Source: Ruminococcus sp.
GTDB taxonomy: Bacteria; Bacillota; Clostridia; Oscillospirales; Acutalibacteraceae
DNA: 64,000 bases
Assembly (NCBI GenBank): GCA_045654185.1
Contig: JAZOMY010000022.1
Location: 4,891 to 68,890, forward strand
Reading direction: 5' to 3'
Each line of letters opens with the position of its first letter. The first letter of the stretch is position 1. Below, in pieces: positions 1,605-39,820 of this stretch. The position numbers and the translations under genes were made by a program. The notes under the pieces are model-generated. The model did not search any database and had not been told where the DNA came from. It worked only from the letters and a program-made list of their open reading frames with translations.

Positions 1605-3653
1605 ATGTGCGGAATTTGCGGTTTTACCGGTCAGATTATTGACCGTGGCAACACCATAAGAAAAATGGCAGAGGTTATTACCCATCGCGGACCCGACTCC
1701 TCGGGTTTTTACGAGGATGACAGAATTGCTATGGGTTTTCGCCGACTCAGCATCATCGATGTTGATGCAGGCCACCAGCCTATATATAACGAAGACAAGT
1801 CCATGGTGCTCACCTTCAACGGCGAGATATACAACTACAAAGAGCTGAGAGAGAAGCTTATTGACTGCGGTCACTCCTTCTACACCAACACCGACAGCGA
1901 GGTGCTCATTCACGGCTTTGAGGAGTGGGGCGAGGGGATGCTTCCTATGCTCCGCGGTATGTTCGGCTTTGCAATTTACAACAAAAACGACGGCTCCGTA
2001 TTTATTGCCCGCGACTTCTTCGGCATCAAGCCCATGCACTACACCCTCATTGACGGGGAGCTTGTCTACGGCTCTGAAATCAAGAGCATCCTTGAGCATC
2101 CCAAATTCGAGAAGCGCTTCAATTACCGCGCTCTGGACACCTATCTTTCTTTCCAGTATGCAGTTCCTCCCGAGACCTTCTTTGAGGATTTGTACTGCCT
2201 GCTGCCCGGTCACTTCCTTATTTATAAGGATGGGGATATTCACATCGAGAGATATTTCGAGGCAAAGTTCAGACCCGACGAGAACCTCTCCGAGGCAGAT
2301 GCCGTGAACAAAATCGAGGAAGTTTTCGAGAATTCCGTAAACGCCCACAAAATTGCGGACGTTGAGGTTGGCTGCTTCCTCTCCTCAGGTGTTGATTCAA
2401 GCTACGTTTCCACCTACTTCGCAGACCAGAAAACCTTCACCGTAGGCTTTGACTTCGGCGAAAAGTATAACGAAATCAGCTGGGCAGAGCGACTTTCCGA
2501 GAAAATCGGCGTTGACCACTACACCAAGGTTATCACAAGCGACGAGTTCTGGGATGCAGTTCCCACTGTGCAGTATCATATGGACCAGCCTCTGGCTGAC
2601 CCCTCCTGCATTGCCCTCTACTTTGTATCAAAGCTTGCCAGCGAGCACGTTAAGGTTGTGCTTTCAGGCGAGGGTGCCGACGAACTTTTCGGCGGCTATC
2701 AGGTATACCGCAACCCCATGAATCACAAACTGTATCAGACGGTATTCCCCTATCCTGTGAGAAAACTCATAAGAAACATCGCGAAGCGTATGCCCGACAT
2801 CAAGGGTCGTGACTACCTTATCCGCGCCACCGACCCCCTGGAGGAGGATTTCATCGGAAACGCATTCCTCTATGACTACAAACAGAAGGCTGAACTTCTG
2901 AAAGACCCCTCCATCGCAACCCGTCCCCAGGACATCACCAAGAAATTCTACACAAGAGCAAGAAAATATGACGATGTCACCAAGATGCAGTATCTGGACA
3001 TCAACCTCTGGCTGGTGGGAGATATCCTGCTGAAAGCCGACAGAATGAGTATGGCAAACTCTCTGGAACTCCGTGTTCCCTTCCTTGACAAGGAAGTCTT
3101 CAAGGTTGCCTCCACCATCCCCTCTAAACTCCGCGTCAACCGCCACAACACCAAGTACGCTCTGAGAAAGGCCGCAGCCCGTCATCTGCCCATTGAAACC
3201 GCAGAGAAGGAAAAGCTGGGCTTCCCCGTACCCACAAGAGTGTGGCTGAAAGACGAGAAATTCTACAACATTGTCAAGAAGGAATTCCAGTCCCCCACAG
3301 CCCAGAAGTTCTTCAACATCGACATCATCATGGACTGGCTGGATGACCACTACGAGGGTCTGGCAGACACAAGCCGCAAGGTCTGGGCAGTTTACGTTTT
3401 CCTCATCTGGTACAAGCAGTACTTCGAAGAAGTTACCACCGCTGAAATCACCGAGGACACCATCGCTCAGGTTGAAACCATCGACGAAACAAACCTTGGT
3501 AATACAGGCACAGTAGGCACTACCGACCAGGAGCGCCTCAATGAGCTTTTCGGCCTTGTCTTTGATGACGAAGACGGCGCAGGAAGCGAAGAGACCGTTT
3601 CCGAGGAGACCTCAACAGAGGCTGCAACCCCCGAAACCGAGGTTCAGGAATAA
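1605..3653 (+). CDS. asnB: Asparagine synthase (glutamine-hydrolysing) family amidotransferase with an acidic C-terminal extension
   Basis: MCGICG Ntn-Cys, HRGPD, RRLSIID, NGEIYN, SSGVDSS and SGEGADELFGGY motifs. Confidence 0.92.
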   Translation: MCGICGFTGQIIDRGNTIRKMAEVITHRGPDSSGFYEDDRIAMGFRRLSIIDVDAGHQPIYNEDKSMVLTFNGEIYNYKELREKLIDCGHSFYTNTDSEVLIHGFEEWGEGMLPMLRGMFGFAIYNKNDGSVFIARDFFGIKPMHYTLIDGELVYGSEIKSILEHPKFEKRFNYRALDTYLSFQYAVPPETFFEDLYCLLPGHFLIYKDGDIHIERYFEAKFRPDENLSEADAVNKIEEVFENSVNAHKIADVEVGCFLSSGVDSSYVSTYFADQKTFTVGFDFGEKYNEISWAERLSEKIGVDHYTKVITSDEFWDAVPTVQYHMDQPLADPSCIALYFVSKLASEHVKVVLSGEGADELFGGYQVYRNPMNHKLYQTVFPYPVRKLIRNIAKRMPDIKGRDYLIRATDPLEEDFIGNAFLYDYKQKAELLKDPSIATRPQDITKKFYTRARKYDDVTKMQYLDINLWLVGDILLKADRMSMANSLELRVPFLDKEVFKVASTIPSKLRVNRHNTKYALRKAAARHLPIETAEKEKLGFPVPTRVWLKDEKFYNIVKKEFQSPTAQKFFNIDIIMDWLDDHYEGLADTSRKVWAVYVFLIWYKQYFEEVTTAEITEDTIAQVETIDETNLGNTGTVGTTDQERLNELFGLVFDDEDGAGSEETVSEETSTEAATPETEVQE

Positions 3654-3723: not shown

Positions 3724-4617
3724 ATGCAGATACTCTCATACCCCGCGAAAATCGAAACACCCACAGCGGTGGCTCTGGGTTATTTTGACGGCGTACACAC
3801 CGCCCACAACCGGATTCTTACCGCCGCCGTGCAGAACCCCTCGGGATATACCCCTGCGGTTTTCACCTTCACTGAAATGGCGAAGTCCTCCGAAGGAAGA
3901 CTCACAACAAACGAGGAGAAGCACCGCCTTTTTGAAGATGCCGGTATAGAAATACTGGTAAGCGCGGATTTCAGCAGTCTTTGCTCCAAGTCCGCCGAGG
4001 AATTCGTCCACGAAGTCCTCAGCGAAAACCTCTGTGCAAAAGCCGTCTGCTGCGGCTACAACTACCGCTTCGGAAAGGGCGCCGAGGCTGATATCAACAC
4101 CCTGAAAGCCCTGTGCGAAAAAGAAGGGATACAGGTTTTTGTCACCAATGAGGTCACCTGCGAAAACACCGAGGTATCCTCATCATCTGTAAAAAAACTG
4201 CTCAAAAACGGAGCCGTCAGAGAGGCAGCCCTGCTCCTGGGCAGAAGCTACACCCTCTCGGGAGAGATTATTCACGGCAACGCTCTGGGCAGGACAATCT
4301 CCACACCCACCCTCAATATCCGCGTTGACGAAAGAAAACTCCTGCCCCGCTTCGGAGTTTATGCCGCACTTGTCAGAATGGGCGACAAAACTTTCAGGTC
4401 CGTAGCAAATATCGGGCTCAAACCCACCGTCGGTTCAGAAAAGCCCACTGTCGAGGCGTATCTCCTTAATGAAAGCGGCAATTTCTACGGAGAGAACGCA
4501 ACCCTTTCCCTCATAGATTTTATCAGGGATGAGAAAAAATTCCAGAACCTCGCAGAGCTTAAAGAGCAAATCCGAATTGATACGGAGAAAGCAGAGGAAA
4601 TCCTCGGCGGTTTTTAA
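3724..4617 (+). CDS. ribF: Bifunctional riboflavin kinase/FAD synthetase
   Basis: GYFDGVHTAH, VSSS, GRTISTPTLN, NIGLKPTV and EAYLL motifs. Confidence 0.92.
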   Translation: MQILSYPAKIETPTAVALGYFDGVHTAHNRILTAAVQNPSGYTPAVFTFTEMAKSSEGRLTTNEEKHRLFEDAGIEILVSADFSSLCSKSAEEFVHEVLSENLCAKAVCCGYNYRFGKGAEADINTLKALCEKEGIQVFVTNEVTCENTEVSSSSVKKLLKNGAVREAALLLGRSYTLSGEIIHGNALGRTISTPTLNIRVDERKLLPRFGVYAALVRMGDKTFRSVANIGLKPTVGSEKPTVEAYLLNESGNFYGENATLSLIDFIRDEKKFQNLAELKEQIRIDTEKAEEILGGF

Positions 4618-4643
4618 CAGCATCACCATAAAGAGATAAAAAT

Positions 4644-4675
4644 AAGTCGGCCAGTTTTCACTGACCGACTTTTTT
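4644..4675. terminator. Bidirectional terminator between ribF and the GtrA gene
   Basis: AGTCGG.CAG/CTG.CCGACT hairpin flanked by A- and T-tracts, between convergent genes. Confidence 0.7.
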
Positions 4676-4690
4676 GTATTTATAAAAATT

Positions 4691-5434
4691 TTACTGTGCA
4701 AATTTTGCGATTATATCACAGATAATTGTGTAGGCATAATATCCTGAAGAACCAAGGAAAACCACGGCACAAATCGCGGTGAGCACCCAGCCGATAACCT
4801 TATCCTTGCGGGTAATGGGCACTGCAACTACGGGTTTATCCTGATTTTCGGAAAAAGCATATCCCTTTTCCTCTGCTTCTTTTCTGGCTTTTTTGAGTTC
4901 TTTTTCCCTTTCCTTCTGCTGAGCTTTTCGGGAAGTGCGGTTTTTGAACACCACAAGTTTGCTGAAAATATAGTTTGCCACCAGCACAAAGATGCTGACA
5001 AGCATTGTTGCTATCATACTCTCGGAGCCGAAGAGGGGATAATTTATGCCCAGTTTGACAAGCAGGGGCACGCCTGCAAGTTCAAGTATGCTTGCTACTG
5101 CACGGGCAGCGATAAAGGACACAAACTCTGTGGCAATTATCTTGCCCTTGAAACTCTTGCTCTCAAAAACAAAAATCTTGTTGGGAGGGAAAGCAAAGAG
5201 AATTGTAACCGCCAGGGACAGAAATGTGGTAAAGAACGAGAGGGCAAAACTCTTAAACCCCAGAGGAGAGAGCAGTTCCTCAAAGAGGGGCGTGGTACCC
5301 CAACGCACCAGAGTTGTCATACCGCCCACTACGATGTAGTTGATAATTTCCCTGTACTTCTTATAAAGTCCAAGAAGCTTATTTTCTTTTTTCTCCCCTG
5401 CGGGAACAGTTGATACTTCCTTCTTCTCAGCCAT
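4691..5434 (-). CDS. GtrA-family lipid-sugar flippase with an extended C-terminus
   Basis: EIINYIVVGGMTT, FAFPPNKIFVF and ANYIFSKLVVF match the GtrA pattern; adjacent to a GT2 gene. Confidence 0.75.
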   Translation of the reverse strand: MAEKKEVSTVPAGEKKENKLLGLYKKYREIINYIVVGGMTTLVRWGTTPLFEELLSPLGFKSFALSFFTTFLSLAVTILFAFPPNKIFVFESKSFKGKIIATEFVSFIAARAVASILELAGVPLLVKLGINYPLFGSESMIATMLVSIFVLVANYIFSKLVVFKNRTSRKAQQKEREKELKKARKEAEEKGYAFSENQDKPVVAVPITRKDKVIGWVLTAICAVVFLGSSGYYAYTIICDIIAKFAQ

Positions 5435-37178: not shown

Positions 37179-37315
37179 TTTGGTTACCACCTTTTTTTAA
37201 TATTACCCGCAGACACAGACAAAGGACAGGTGAATCCGCTTCTGCGGCATACTCCAAAGTCCGTGAAAGGGGCCTAAGCAAATGACATTATAACACAATG
37301 TTTTCAAAAAGTAAA
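37179..37315 (-). promoter_or_regulatory. rpsO promoter (TTTACT-17-TG-TATAAT) and structured ~100-nt leader, probably the S15 autoregulatory element
   Basis: -10 at 37292-37287, -35 at 37315-37310; CCGCAGA/TCTGCGG stem (37207-37247). Function inferred from known S15 autoregulation. Confidence 0.5.
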
Positions 37316-37511
37316 GTATTTTTTACTGAAGAATTTTAATTTAGTATCCCCGCTGTCTTTATCGTTATGCGACTGTTATGTGGCGAGGCAGAAGGCAGGA
37401 AAAACCAAATCAGCTTATTAAAAGGTGCTTATTTTCTGCGAACGAGCAACTAAAAGCAGCATAAACATAGACAAAAAACATCAAAAGTAATATGTATCTG
37501 TATACGGTCTG

Positions 37512-38069
37512 TTATTTGTTGTCTTTCAAATGCTTTACGTACTCATTTTCATCAATATTAAAACAATTAAAGTATGCAACATCCTTCAGTGGATACACTC
37601 CTGTATCGTTAGCATGAAAGGAAACATACACGATTCGATAAGTTTCAGGATTGTAGATTATTTTTTCTATATCAGCATAGCCAACCGCTTGTTCTTCGTT
37701 GTTATCATTATCCAAAATGGAATACGAGTCTTGAAAAACAACTTCGTAGAATCCATCGGAGTAATAGCATTCCACACTATTACTCATAACTTCAGAAAGA
37801 AGCTCATCAAATTGACTTTCAGTTACAGTAATATCCAAGAAGATTTCGTGACAAACATCCATCCACGCCTCCAAATTATAGGCATACGCATTTACGGAAT
37901 AATCTTCAACAGAGTCCGGGAAAAACTCAGGTAATTCTATGTAATATTCAAGTTTTCCATATTGTTGAACATCAGTTACTCGCTTACTCCCGAAATCGCA
38001 AGCAGATAGTGAAAACATCATTGCAATGATAATTATAATCGATAGAACAAAACTGAGAATTCTTTTCAT
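37512..38069 (-). CDS. Hypothetical lipoprotein (accessory, AT-rich)
   Basis: MKR + hydrophobic stretch + lipobox LSAC. Start moved to ATG 38069. Confidence 0.75.
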   Translation of the reverse strand: MKRILSFVLSIIIIIAMMFSLSACDFGSKRVTDVQQYGKLEYYIELPEFFPDSVEDYSVNAYAYNLEAWMDVCHEIFLDITVTESQFDELLSEVMSNSVECYYSDGFYEVVFQDSYSILDNDNNEEQAVGYADIEKIIYNPETYRIVYVSFHANDTGVYPLKDVAYFNCFNIDENEYVKHLKDNK

Positions 38070-38250
38070 TATAGGTTCCCACCTTCCCATTATTATCGGT
38101 CCAGTACTTAATCCAGCGGATATAGTTGAGTTTATATTTAGTTTATCACAAAACCACAAGTTTTTCAATTAAACACAGGAAAAACCTATCTTGTCATGAT
38201 AGACAAAAGAGGCTTTTTTGTTGGCAAAGGGTAACCAAAAGTACACCAGG

Positions 38251-38385
38251 TTAAAGCTGTTTATATAGCAAGGAGATTTTCGACTTGAAATACTGTTCTT
38301 GGAAATGCGTTAATTCTGCAATCTCTTCCCGTGTGAAAGTCATACCTTCCGTTGCAACTACCCATTTATGCTCAATATCATTTTG
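38251..38385 (-). pseudogene. Frameshifted C-terminal remnant of a small inorganic-pyrophosphatase-like protein
   Basis: Reads NDIEHKWVVATEGMTFTREEIAE, then after a shift near 38310 HFQEQYFKSKISLLYKQL*. This resembles the tail of that Clostridial family as I recall it; no 5' part or start codon. Confidence 0.55.
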
Positions 38386-38731
38386 TATTCTCCTTTGCGG
38401 TGCGGCAGGATGCAATCAGAAGTCTGCGAATGTTACCACAAAGTTTTTCTGTATATTGATAAGTTTCAACATCTATTCTTTTGGTTTCATACATCAACTT
38501 CAACCAATAACTCGTTTCGTTGGATTCTTTGAGTGCAATTTCCAATTTTGCTACAAAGTCTTTCTTGCTCTGTGCGTACTGTGCTTCGTGGATATTAGCA
38601 CCAACCGATGTACCTGCTCTTGCGAGCTGATCGGTCATATAGGAACTTTTTGGTGCAGTTACACCGTCAACAAGATTCACAATCGCAACTGCAAATTCAA
38701 AAGATAAATCAAGTAATTTGTTTTCAGACAT
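38378..38731 (-). CDS. Four-helix-bundle protein (23S rRNA IVP / Avd-like family)
   Basis: LSFEFAVAIV, DQLARAGTSVGANIHEA, SKKDFVAKLEIALKESNETSYWL motifs. Start at ATG 38731. Confidence 0.88.
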   Translation of the reverse strand: MSENKLLDLSFEFAVAIVNLVDGVTAPKSSYMTDQLARAGTSVGANIHEAQYAQSKKDFVAKLEIALKESNETSYWLKLMYETKRIDVETYQYTEKLCGNIRRLLIASCRTAKENTK

Positions 38732-38753
38732 AAATGCACCTTCTTTCAATAAC

Positions 38754-38782
38754 ATTATACTATGAAATATTGCGTTTTTCAA
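38754..38782 (-). promoter_or_regulatory. Promoter TTGAAA-17-TATAAT for the four-helix-bundle gene
   Basis: Read directly from the sequence. Confidence 0.75.
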
Positions 38783-38950
38783 CGATATATCGTATGTGCG
38801 ATATGATATACGGCTGTCGCCGCATGATATACTTGCTTCGCAAGCATGATATAATATCCGTTCCTTCATATGCCGAAGGCATATATCATCCACCGAGGGT
38901 GGATATCATATCGAAGATATATCACCCGTTCCGACAGGAACGGATATCAT
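38782..38950. other. Multi-hairpin structured element (ncRNA or ssDNA), strand unknown
   Basis: Seven short hairpins/palindromes linked by recurring ATGATATA and ATATCA motifs, plus an 11-bp long-range pair (38854-38864 with 38937-38947). Confidence 0.7.
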
Positions 38951-38995
38951 TGAAAAAAGTCTCTTTTGTCCGGTAGACAAAAGAGACTTTTTTCA
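38951..38995. terminator. Bidirectional terminator abutting the tRNA CCA end
   Basis: Perfect 20-bp inverted repeat TGAAAAAAGTCTCTTTTGTC/GACAAAAGAGACTTTTTTCA. Confidence 0.85.
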
Positions 38996-39071
38996 TGGAG
39001 CTGGTGACGTGACTTGAACACGCGACCTGCTGATTACGAATCAGCTGCTCTACCGACTGAGCTACACCAGC
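38996..39071 (-). tRNA. tRNA-Thr(CGT)
   Basis: 76 nt, GCTGGTG acceptor stem, anticodon arm GCTGA-TTCGTAA-TCAGC, GTTCAA T-loop, encoded CCA. Confidence 0.97.
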
Positions 39072-39210
39072 GAATATTTTGCTGCGGGCTGCAAACACAG
39101 TCTCCTGAAAATCAATGTTTCAAAACAGGGAATAACTCAAAAACTCTCGGGAAATACTGCACTTGTCCAACCAAAAAACACGTCTGCTTACTATAAATCA
39201 ACTTTGGGTA

Positions 39211-39239
39211 ATTATATATCAGAATCGCGTATTTTTCAA
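39211..39239 (-). promoter_or_regulatory. Probable tRNA-Thr promoter TTGAAA-17-TATAAT (implies a ~135-nt leader)
   Basis: Read directly from the sequence. Confidence 0.6.
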
Positions 39240-39369
39240 GAGTCGCGACGATTTTTTGCTATGAATGTGCAAAATTTGTCATATTTCGTGAAACGTTTTC
39301 ACAAAATCAACAACTGTGCCCATTTTCGTTTAATAATATAATTATCAAATTATGTTCGGGGTGGAAAAT

Positions 39370-39777
39370 ATGTCAAAAGAACTGGGCAGAAAACTGGCTA
39401 TGCTGAGAAACAACAGCGAGCTGACACAAAAACACATTGCCGATGCTCTGCATCTGGACAGGTCTACCTATGCCTACTACGAGCGCGGAACAACAGAGCC
39501 CGACCTGAAGGCATTGGTAAAAATCGCTCGTATCCTCAATGTTGACCCCACAGAGCTTCTTCCCTCCAAGGACGGAGAAGATGCGGATGTTGCCGACGTT
39601 TCCGCCGAAAGCAGCAAGCCCCGAAGGAGAGGTAAATCCGATCCGCGTTCAAAGAACTCAAAAATTTACTCCCTCAGCAGAGAGGAAAAGAAACTTCTCT
39701 CCCTGTACAGATCCCTGGATGATGCCAAGCGCCGCGAGGTTGTGGATTTCACAGACGGACTCACCCACAAAACCTGA
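39370..39777 (+). CDS. XRE-family HTH transcriptional regulator
   Basis: LAMLRNNSELTQKHIADALHLDRSTYAYYERGTTEP HTH pattern. Confidence 0.88.
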   Translation: MSKELGRKLAMLRNNSELTQKHIADALHLDRSTYAYYERGTTEPDLKALVKIARILNVDPTELLPSKDGEDADVADVSAESSKPRRRGKSDPRSKNSKIYSLSREEKKLLSLYRSLDDAKRREVVDFTDGLTHKT

Positions 39778-39786
39778 TAAACTTTC

Positions 39787-39820
39787 AAAAGCACCCTGCA
39801 TAAGAGGGTGCTTTCTTTTT
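39787..39820. terminator. Bidirectional terminator
   Basis: AAAGCACCCT/AGGGTGCTTT inverted repeat. Confidence 0.75.

Follow-up and report, generated by a model that had tools for sequence, protein, structure and literature searches.

Integron cassettes are promoterless open reading frames (ORFs), each followed by an attC site, which share the common promoter Pc and depend on the tyrosine integrase IntI. Genomic islands and prophages that target tRNA genes insert at the 3' end of a tRNA or transfer-messenger RNA (tmRNA) gene, leave the tRNA intact, carry a tyrosine integrase and are marked by tRNA-end repeats of ~15-50 nt. Elements of the IS200/IS605 type are mobilized by an HUH enzyme, whose cleavage site lies 3' of a short word beside a hairpin and whose insertions leave the target unduplicated; their derivatives, as well as REP/BIME sequences with RAYT, are short, hairpin-rich, multi-copy intergenic elements moved in trans. 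Here we analyse a 64,000-nt stretch of a Ruminococcus sp. genome (assembly GCA_045654185.1, contig JAZOMY010000022.1, positions 4,891 to 68,890; the whole stretch is hereafter called the window), in which two similar junctions, each a CCA followed by two bases and a terminator hairpin, are likely the starts of two promoter-bearing cassettes docked in series behind a tRNA-Thr(CGT) gene, with cassette 1, next to the tRNA, being the later arrival.

Like integron cassettes, these units are small, lie in one orientation, are stacked at a fixed site with the apparently newest one proximal, possess one hairpin element each, and vary in content and order. Unlike an integron, the locus has no adjoining IntI-type integrase gene, its cassettes dock at any tRNA or tmRNA 3' end and not at attI, a head hairpin, a multi-hairpin array and a non-palindromic tail stand in place of attC, and each cassette brings its own promoter-like site and terminator, with many carrying a gene for a four-helix-bundle protein. 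With tRNA-targeting islands and prophages the cassettes share the target, the 3' end of a tRNA or tmRNA gene that stays intact, whereas the sequence common to both ends is here 3 nt long and no integrase is carried. With IS200/IS605-derived and REP/BIME elements they have in common the short, hairpin-rich, multi-copy and intergenic character, the lack of a target duplication, the position next to a short word and the presumed movement in trans; in contrast to these, they hold promoters and genes, their right end forms no hairpin, and they show no co-occurrence with Y1 transposases.

Two parts of the locus belong to families already on record. The Gut-1 motif (RF01706) was described as an orphan non-coding RNA from human gut sequence only (Weinberg et al. 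2010, PMC2864571). The four-helix-bundle protein is a clear member of PF05635/TIGR02436 (23S rRNA intervening-sequence protein / Avd-like family) and, like the intervening-sequence proteins, is encoded in an insert in or beside a stable-RNA gene, but not inside rRNA. Literature searches on Gut-1, on PF05635/TIGR02436 and on tRNA-linked cassettes returned no such system; they yielded the 2010 paper on the motif and one review, on diversity-generating retroelements, and nothing else.

Occupied and empty docking sites

The window lies on contig C22 of a genome of 2.03 Mb and was compared with 301 genomes of the family and, at the interval in question, with 17 same-genus relatives (L039-L055). Promoters and terminators were called by pattern match. 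The parts on which the argument turns are the following.

38996..39071, minus strand: tRNA-Thr(CGT) gene (ARAGORN; Rfam tRNA, 71.2 bits), whose 3' CCA at 38996-38998 is the putative docking point
38222..38995, minus strand: cassette 1, 774 nt, the segment missing from L065 (blastn and the joint in run X2)
38951..38995, minus strand: head hairpin of cassette 1, a predicted bidirectional terminator (inverted repeat, 100 % complementary; -28.2 kcal/mol)
37437..38221, minus strand: cassette 2, 785 nt (head hairpin, promoter, lipoprotein gene and tail), a unit found in four contexts
38178..38221, minus strand: head hairpin of cassette 2, which holds the distal copy of the repeat (one mismatch and two wobbles; -16.7 kcal/mol)

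Central to the argument is L065, a contig of a Logan assembly from a different sample, which was found by searching for relatives of the lipoprotein. By blastn, its nt 1-30 match window positions 39025-38996, the tRNA-Thr 3' end, at 100 %, and its nt 28-828 are collinear with window positions 38224-37420 at 89.1 %. After the tRNA end L065 reads 'CCA AC AAAAAGCCTC...', in a longer reading 'CCA AC AAAAAGCCTCTTTTGTC...GACAAGAGAGGC', and then enters the promoter region found in the window, followed by a lipoprotein gene with 89 % identity; the genes farther downstream differ from those of the window. In the window, cassette 1 opens with 'TG AAAAAAGTCTC' directly after the tRNA CCA and closes with '...GGTTACCCTTTGCCA', and the two ends of this 774-nt extra segment have only CCA in common. 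The window therefore corresponds to L065 plus 774 nt, with the exchange point at or within CCA and outside the neighbouring 19/20 repeat. As far as these alignments tell, the insertion is thus placed within the 3-nt CCA at 38996-38998, and a related lineage has an empty site where the tRNA-proximal cassette sits in the window.

An independent contig, from run X2, shows the same joint: it is ~90 % identical to the 5' end of the lipoprotein gene, jumps from 38139 to 38976 and continues for 59 nt into the tRNA end. Joints from 38957 to 38200 and from 38970 to 38201 in run contigs were set aside, since they may stem from a variant hairpin arm that the aligner assigned to whichever copy fitted it better. 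Eight metagenome contigs with the 3' 26-mer of tRNA-Thr all diverge directly after CCA and have plain terminators; they probably stem from other species, and their support is weak. The initial annotation had proposed sequential insertion behind the tRNA, to be tested by whether relatives differ in cassette content and order and whether the break points coincide with the repeats. The outcome favours this reading: the break points in L065 and in the run X2 join coincide with the repeats, exactly at CCA, comparison of L065 with the window separates two units, and genomes differ both in content (L065 lacks cassette 1) and in order (reversed in L064).

The repeat itself was also located correctly. 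It is a 25-nt direct repeat (38200-38224 and 38974-38998; spacing 774) with 22/25 identical positions (88 %); in each copy, CCA and two further bases precede the first arm of a hairpin terminator. The 20-mer, allowing up to 3 mismatches, matches three times in the window versus 0.01 expected (100 shuffles), the third match being the other arm of the proximal hairpin, and the genome-wide look that had been suggested yields only one further copy, with 2 mismatches, in the terminator behind tRNA-Gly(TCC) on contig C5. The proximal hairpin (38951-38995) forms a perfect 20+20 palindrome bordered by an A run and a T run. The distal one, rightly called decayed, is predicted at -16.7 kcal/mol, compared with -28.2 for the proximal hairpin and -25.0 for its own orthologue in L065; it still folds, and a T run comes after it.

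The idea that the insertion had repeated the terminator arm did not hold up. At the three positions where the window copies differ, the distal copy sides with L065 each time (AC, not TG; C, not T, in GCCTC), and therefore the distal hairpin represents the original occupant's own head. In other genomes the head stem (CTCTTTTGTC), which is not rich in GC, turns up specifically in the heads of cassettes; across 19 heads the proximal stem covaries, with up to 5 Watson-Crick or wobble pair types per position, and in relatives the distal head is matched by tRNA-end-plus-terminator sequences at tRNA-Arg, tRNA-Ser and tRNA-Gly. Judged from these comparisons, the two arms are alike since the cassette heads of the family are homologous, each cassette having brought its own, and the insertion appears to have duplicated nothing.

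Two further candidate junction signals were rejected. A third TAGACAAAA at 37468, which had been taken for another junction, lies inside the tail of cassette 2, whose real end is at ~37437; three matches compare with 0.8 expected, 4 of 100 shuffles reach three, and the word is not conserved in the orthologous tails of L064, L065 and L097. Likewise, the distal 'GTTACCCTTTGCCA' is not a decayed tRNA-Thr 3' end, as its homologue accompanies the same cargo behind a tRNA-Met gene and reads GGCA there.

Anatomy of the two cassettes

The remaining features of the locus, in the order in which they follow the tRNA, are these.

38760..38952, minus strand: two-armed Gut-1 hairpin array, ~190 nt (RF01706 on both strands)
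38754..38782, minus strand: sigma-70-like promoter of the four-helix-bundle gene, TTGAAA-17-TATAAT (consensus scan 11/12; pattern match only)
38378..38731, minus strand: four-helix-bundle gene, 117 aa (PF05635; TIGR02436, 23S rRNA intervening-sequence protein / Avd-like family)
38251..38381, minus strand: remnant of a pyrophosphatase-like cargo gene (homology to an intact 109-aa gene in G017:C88)
38222..38250, minus strand: tail of cassette 1 in shortened form (GTACTTTTGGTTACCCTTTGCCA), with the distal CCA (38222-38224) as its end
38140..38168, minus strand: promoter-like site of the lipoprotein gene, TTGAAA-17-TAAACT with TG (consensus scan; conserved in L064 and L065)
37512..38069, minus strand: lipoprotein gene, 185 aa, lipobox LSAC (ORF)
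37437..37511, minus strand: tail of cassette 2, ending ...GCTCGTTCGCA (aligned with the tails of L064, L065 and L097)

The minus-strand arm of the array (38878-38952) scores 61.9 bits against RF01706 and exceeds the gathering score of 50, whereas the mirrored arm, on the plus strand at 38760-38835, reaches 30.2 bits and stays below the cut-off. Gut-1, as it was described, is therefore matched by one arm, but here forms half of a two-armed array at the head of a tRNA-docked cassette; the array reads on both strands and lies upstream of the cassette promoter, so that an RNA role is not evident. Between its mini-hairpins stand words of the TGATAT type (first half) or ATATCA words (second half), the former being the reverse complement of the latter. 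Across array families these word pairs change together (GTGAAG/CTTCAC, GTGATAT/ATATCAC, ATGATG/CATCAT), which fits either pairing of the two array halves or binding by a symmetric protein. Among the 19 aligned heads, three to four pair types occur in the array hairpins and the linker words are invariant, and the pattern of substitution indicates that the structure of the cassette is under selection.

The promoter of the four-helix gene holds a position that is conserved in homologues. The protein matches PF05635 with E 2.8e-24 and 85.8 bits (cut-off 33.8; profile positions 3-105 of 106) and TIGR02436 with 94.4 bits (cut-off 24); no exact match of it is on record in public assemblies. Between this gene and the second hairpin lie ~150 nt without an intact gene. 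The initial annotation had called this part a remnant; it is not the relic of a separate cassette but the internally deleted pyrophosphatase-like cargo of the four-helix cassette. The remnant begins with an ATG that shares bases with the four-helix stop (ATGA), has fallen out of frame through an internal deletion and retains only the C-terminal ~41 codons. The intact 109-aa homologue, in G017:C88 (L059), follows a unit of the same kind at tRNA-Met and matches PF00719 with 28.2 bits. In copies of cassette 1 generally, homology ends at the four-helix stop; a variable second gene, whose start overlaps this stop as ATGA, and then a conserved tail follow.

The tail has a consensus of ~65 nt ('TACTTTTGGTC...CTACTTACGCTACTTTTAGTCGNTCTTTCGCA'), is not palindromic and forms no hairpin; after it comes the next array or head hairpin. 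The tail of cassette 1 in the window is a deleted form of this consensus that ends GCCA, and its homologue in G017:C88, behind the same cargo at tRNA-Met, ends GGCA. Tails across stacks end in CGCA, GGCA, TCCA, ACCA or GCCA; since the ends vary before CA, the conserved part of the junction is CA. The CCA at the same offset, noted earlier, has meaning only in part and owes something to luck: at the tails of other stacks, GCA is far commoner than CCA.

The lipoprotein of cassette 2 has no match in Pfam or NCBIfam and 44 homologues. Besides the window, where it stands behind cassette 1, the unit occurs in L065, with tRNA-Thr as its direct neighbour; in L064, between a duplicated tRNA-Arg(CCG) end and a four-helix cassette, so that the order is reversed; and in L097, after the tail of another cassette. 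Distant homologues, 72-73 % identical, sit as ordinary operon genes, and therefore cassette 2 seems to have captured a chromosomal gene. L064 also contains a hybrid array (4556-4810), directly after a cassette tail and without a hairpin terminator, which starts in the GTGAAG type known from C15 and C1 of the present genome (CGAACTAAGTGTGCCTTGCGGCACGATAAG) and goes on in the TGATAT type of the window; its make-up suggests recombination between arrays.

The ORFs flanking the array are pnp, rpsO, a helix-turn-helix (HTH) gene and an amidohydrolase gene, with rpsO and pnp next after the lipoprotein gene in minus-strand order. Gene order around the locus is fluid. When window positions 37200-39800 were compared with L039-L055, tRNA-Thr(CGT) was seen to point away from rpsO, on the opposite strand, in 16/17 same-genus relatives; in the lineage of the window, the segment with the tRNA and the cassettes is thus inverted or rearranged. 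In both relatives examined, G017 and G022, the latter having the orientation of the window, the HTH gene lies between tRNA-Thr and rpsO, and a cassette match at the interval was found in 0/17. Contigs in runs X2 and X4 join ~37275 to ~39073 on opposite strands.

Distribution and other stacks

Cassette 1 is present in 34/301 family genomes, and its start always lies 2 nt after CCA. Head and four-helix gene stand, for instance, behind tRNA-Pro(CGG) in G017 (81 %) and behind tRNA-Leu(TAA) in G012 (74 %), with compensatory changes in the hairpin stems and with the array beginning at the same distance. The head motif was located at 57 loci, and at 47 of them a tRNA or tmRNA gene ends exactly one hairpin upstream, with 23 anticodons and tmRNA represented; most of the others have the tail of a different cassette or a duplicate of a tRNA end. 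A protein scan of species-representative genomes returned at least 502 four-helix loci, of which the best 80 are 79-98 % identical, come from ruminant and human guts, and are labelled Acutalibacteraceae, Faecousia, Oscillospiraceae, Ruminococcus or Clostridia. The identity of the cassette to copies in other genera (80-86 %) versus 68-71 % in the pnp-rpsO region points to transfer between genera. These data show a family with docking sites behind many tRNAs and with transfer from genus to genus, and the cassettes would apparently represent a widespread, hitherto undescribed mobile family of gut Clostridia.

Within the genome of the window, all four PF05635 genes (4/4) lie behind tRNAs, each with an array of a different word. 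A further stack at C1:90629-91700 consists of tRNA-Leu(CAA), a hairpin, a GTGAAG-type array, a promoter, a gene for a 150-aa lipoprotein, '...GGTTTCCA AA', a hairpin and a GATGATAT-type array, while in G036:C53 one gene lies between two near-identical heads. L071 (G174:C78) has, at ~2200-3000 of the oriented copy and directly after a four-helix cassette, at least four complete tandem heads, each a hairpin with an ATGATG- or GTGAAG-type array, without protein-coding cargo between them.

Three GTGATAT-type arrays of the same genome (C15:126178-126351, C14:142461-142649 and C4:119613-119786) are not at tRNAs but lie between convergent or tandem protein genes, with ordinary terminator hairpins on both sides; therefore, arrays lodge at non-tRNA terminators too. 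At the end of contig C21 (97360-97728), the 5' half of tRNA-Pro(CGG) (CGAGGTGTAGCGCAGTTTGGTAGCGCGCGACCTTCGGG) occurs three times with a different sequence after each copy, which could reflect either a fault of the assembly or a tRNA gene that is disrupted or interrupted.

Other small inserts behind tRNAs in these genomes are of a different kind. An element of ~190 nt ('GGGATTCGAACCCTGAGAGGGTGAG...AGTCCGGGG...') without a match in Rfam occurs behind several tRNA genes, at C15:197500-197690 and L064:3650-3855 as well as on C5 (~8250 and ~98800), C12 (~7800), C16 (~51900) and C21 (~51850). Its far end, at tRNA-Arg on C15 and in L064, is an 18-21-nt copy of the tRNA 3' end, and it lies there between the tRNA and the cassette head; by its ends it behaves as a classical site-specific insert, unlike the cassettes. 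In the same-genus L040 (G013:C32) and L043 (G021:C11), a small insert ~170 nt after tRNA-Thr(CGT) is flanked by a repeat of the last 31 nt of the tRNA, which in L040 takes in the terminator too; its motif GCGACCTGC..GGGGnCCCAAAA..GGGGAGAGGAGGAGC is also present in L041, L042 and L048 and matches no Rfam family. Small elements in these genomes thus leave tRNA-end repeats of 18-31 nt, so that they can be told apart from the 3-nt behaviour of the cassettes.

Discussion

In the reading that we consider likely, cassette 2 would have reached the tRNA first, and cassette 1 would then have entered exactly between the tRNA CCA and cassette 2, bringing its hairpin terminator, two-armed array, promoter, four-helix gene, pyrophosphatase-like cargo (now deleted) and CCA tail. 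The newest unit would therefore be the one that adjoins the tRNA. Such a pattern would result from a dedicated site- or structure-specific joining reaction, which acts 3' of the terminal CA of a tRNA or tmRNA gene or of an earlier tail. The intermediate would probably be circular or single-stranded, with the ...CA end of the tail abutting the head hairpin; the predicted circle joins 38222 (tail ...TTTGCCA) to 38995 (TGAAAAAAGTC...), and the restored empty site joins 38998 to 38221. The joining enzyme would act in trans. Once docked, a cassette could serve as an insulated expression unit, whose head hairpin stops read-through from the tRNA and whose own promoter drives the cargo.

The initial annotation called the array integron-like. 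This describes the outcome well, as content and order vary at a fixed site with proximal entry (L065, L064), but the cassettes have promoters of their own and none of the defining parts of an integron was found at the locus. The likeness to a genomic island is also limited. Only CCA is common to the ends of the insert, GGTTACCCTTTG before the distal CCA is a homologue of the tail behind the tRNA-Met cargo (G017:C88) and not of tRNA-Thr, and the units of 774 and 785 nt encode only the four-helix gene, the remnant and the lipoprotein gene, without an integrase.

Several points weigh against docking in series by a dedicated reaction. Among the ORFs of the array area, no recombinase or transposase lies in or beside the cassettes, which agrees with the earlier suggestion that the recombinase is encoded elsewhere. 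The genome holds a single Y1 transposase, IS200-like (C5:131148-131522), whose C-terminal part is out of frame at an A run. In co-occurrence counts over the 301 genomes, which ignore shared ancestry, Y1_Tnp was found in 33/102 genomes positive for Gut-1 arrays and in 78/199 negative ones (33/69/78/121; odds ratio 0.74, p = 0.26). GCA is far commoner than CCA at the tails, and therefore the junction signal amounts to ~2 nt, too little for tRNA specificity. L065 is only 89 % identical and therefore represents a related lineage and no sister strain, and the polarity of the event, a gain in the window as opposed to a loss in L065, would follow from the comparison indirectly. Finally, the assembly of the window is a 22-contig draft without a read check, and none of the public runs screened for this strain holds it (word shares of 0.11 or less).

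The search for an enzyme in the rest of the genome gave five tyrosine recombinases (PF00589 matches), on C3, C15, C10 and C5, and none on C22. Structured sequence flanks the Y1 gene of C5 on both sides; as a mobiliser, the Y1 transposase was rejected, as it does not co-occur with the arrays. The genome contains no RVT_1 match; retro-mobility through a resident reverse transcriptase was rejected on this ground, and, without a reverse transcriptase in the genome, the four-helix protein is not the Avd of a diversity-generating retroelement. The large serine recombinase proved uninformative, being present in 242/301 genomes and missing from several that bear arrays, such as G139; a serine recombinase also lies beside the lipoprotein homologue of L066, on the other strand. 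In contrast, Gut-1 arrays are strongly associated with PF05635 genes (79/23/36/163 among the 301 genomes, again uncorrected for shared ancestry; odds ratio 15.6, p = 7e-24). The four-helix protein is thus the one protein with a consistent tie to the arrays.

It most likely would bind the repeated words of its own array. A further proposal, which we put forward as a rather unlikely one, is that the four-helix protein and its cognate array constitute the docking machinery, in which their nucleoprotein complex would read the folded 3' ends of tRNA and tmRNA genes, or their terminators, and direct integration after the terminal CA, either without a classical recombinase or with a recruited host enzyme.

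Among the alternatives, homologous recombination after DNA uptake would need no dedicated reaction: the tRNA gene and the conserved heads and tails would act as homology arms, and stacks would arise by unequal exchange between heads. Conserved heads and tails could indeed fill this role, tRNA genes are near-identical between species (that for tRNA-Thr of G017 is 100 % identical), and the hybrid array of L064 resembles the product of recombination between arrays. However, the same cassette is found at 23 different tRNAs that are alike only in CCA and the T arm, and the right-hand homology amounts to just ~25-40 nt. Moreover, recombination between the repeats should yield a chimeric head, and the exchange point between L065 and the window lies within, or to the left of, the 3-nt CCA despite the adjacent 19/20 repeat. 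Homologous exchange is thus an unlikely origin of the stack.

We regard it as improbable that the cassettes are non-autonomous elements moved in single-stranded form by an HUH enzyme (Y1, of the IS200/IS605 or REP-RAYT kind), which cuts 3' of a short word by a hairpin. Several features of the junction follow this logic: there is no target duplication, insertion takes place 3' of CA, a few bases before the foot of a hairpin, target and right end of the element both finish in CA as in IS608, the elements are rich in hairpins, and the genome does have one Y1 gene. Of the end features of IS200/IS605 elements, the left-end hairpin is present and the right-end hairpin absent, the tail forming no hairpin at all. 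Against such an enzyme stand also the 69/102 Gut-1-positive genomes without a Y1 transposase and the ordinary IS200-like character of the resident copy with its frameshifted end.

That the hairpins are alike merely by chance or by convergence of A-tract/T-tract terminators, with the tRNA and three unrelated genes each having a terminator of its own, finds some footing in the A-run/stem/T-run hairpins that follow nearly all tRNAs of the genome and in the plain terminators of the eight metagenome contigs with the same tRNA-Thr end, but it is highly improbable given the 0.01 matches expected by chance and the specific recurrence of the stem in cassette heads of other genomes, and it leaves the empty site of L065 and the relocations without explanation.

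Conclusions

The locus is useful in that occupied and empty site are both available. If docking in series behind tRNA genes is the right reading, gut Clostridia (Acutalibacteraceae, Oscillospiraceae, Ruminococcus and relatives) would use tRNA 3' ends as landing pads, and arrays of small, self-expressing cassettes would pass between genera, a route of gene flow comparable to integrons in outcome and built of different parts. Two orphans, the Gut-1 'RNA' motif and the four-helix-bundle family, would thereby gain a context. Should the four-helix protein in addition take part in docking, the orphan 23S-intervening-sequence/Avd-like family would be the signature of a new class of mobile elements, and a docking role would explain why such genes are found inside rRNA intervening sequences.

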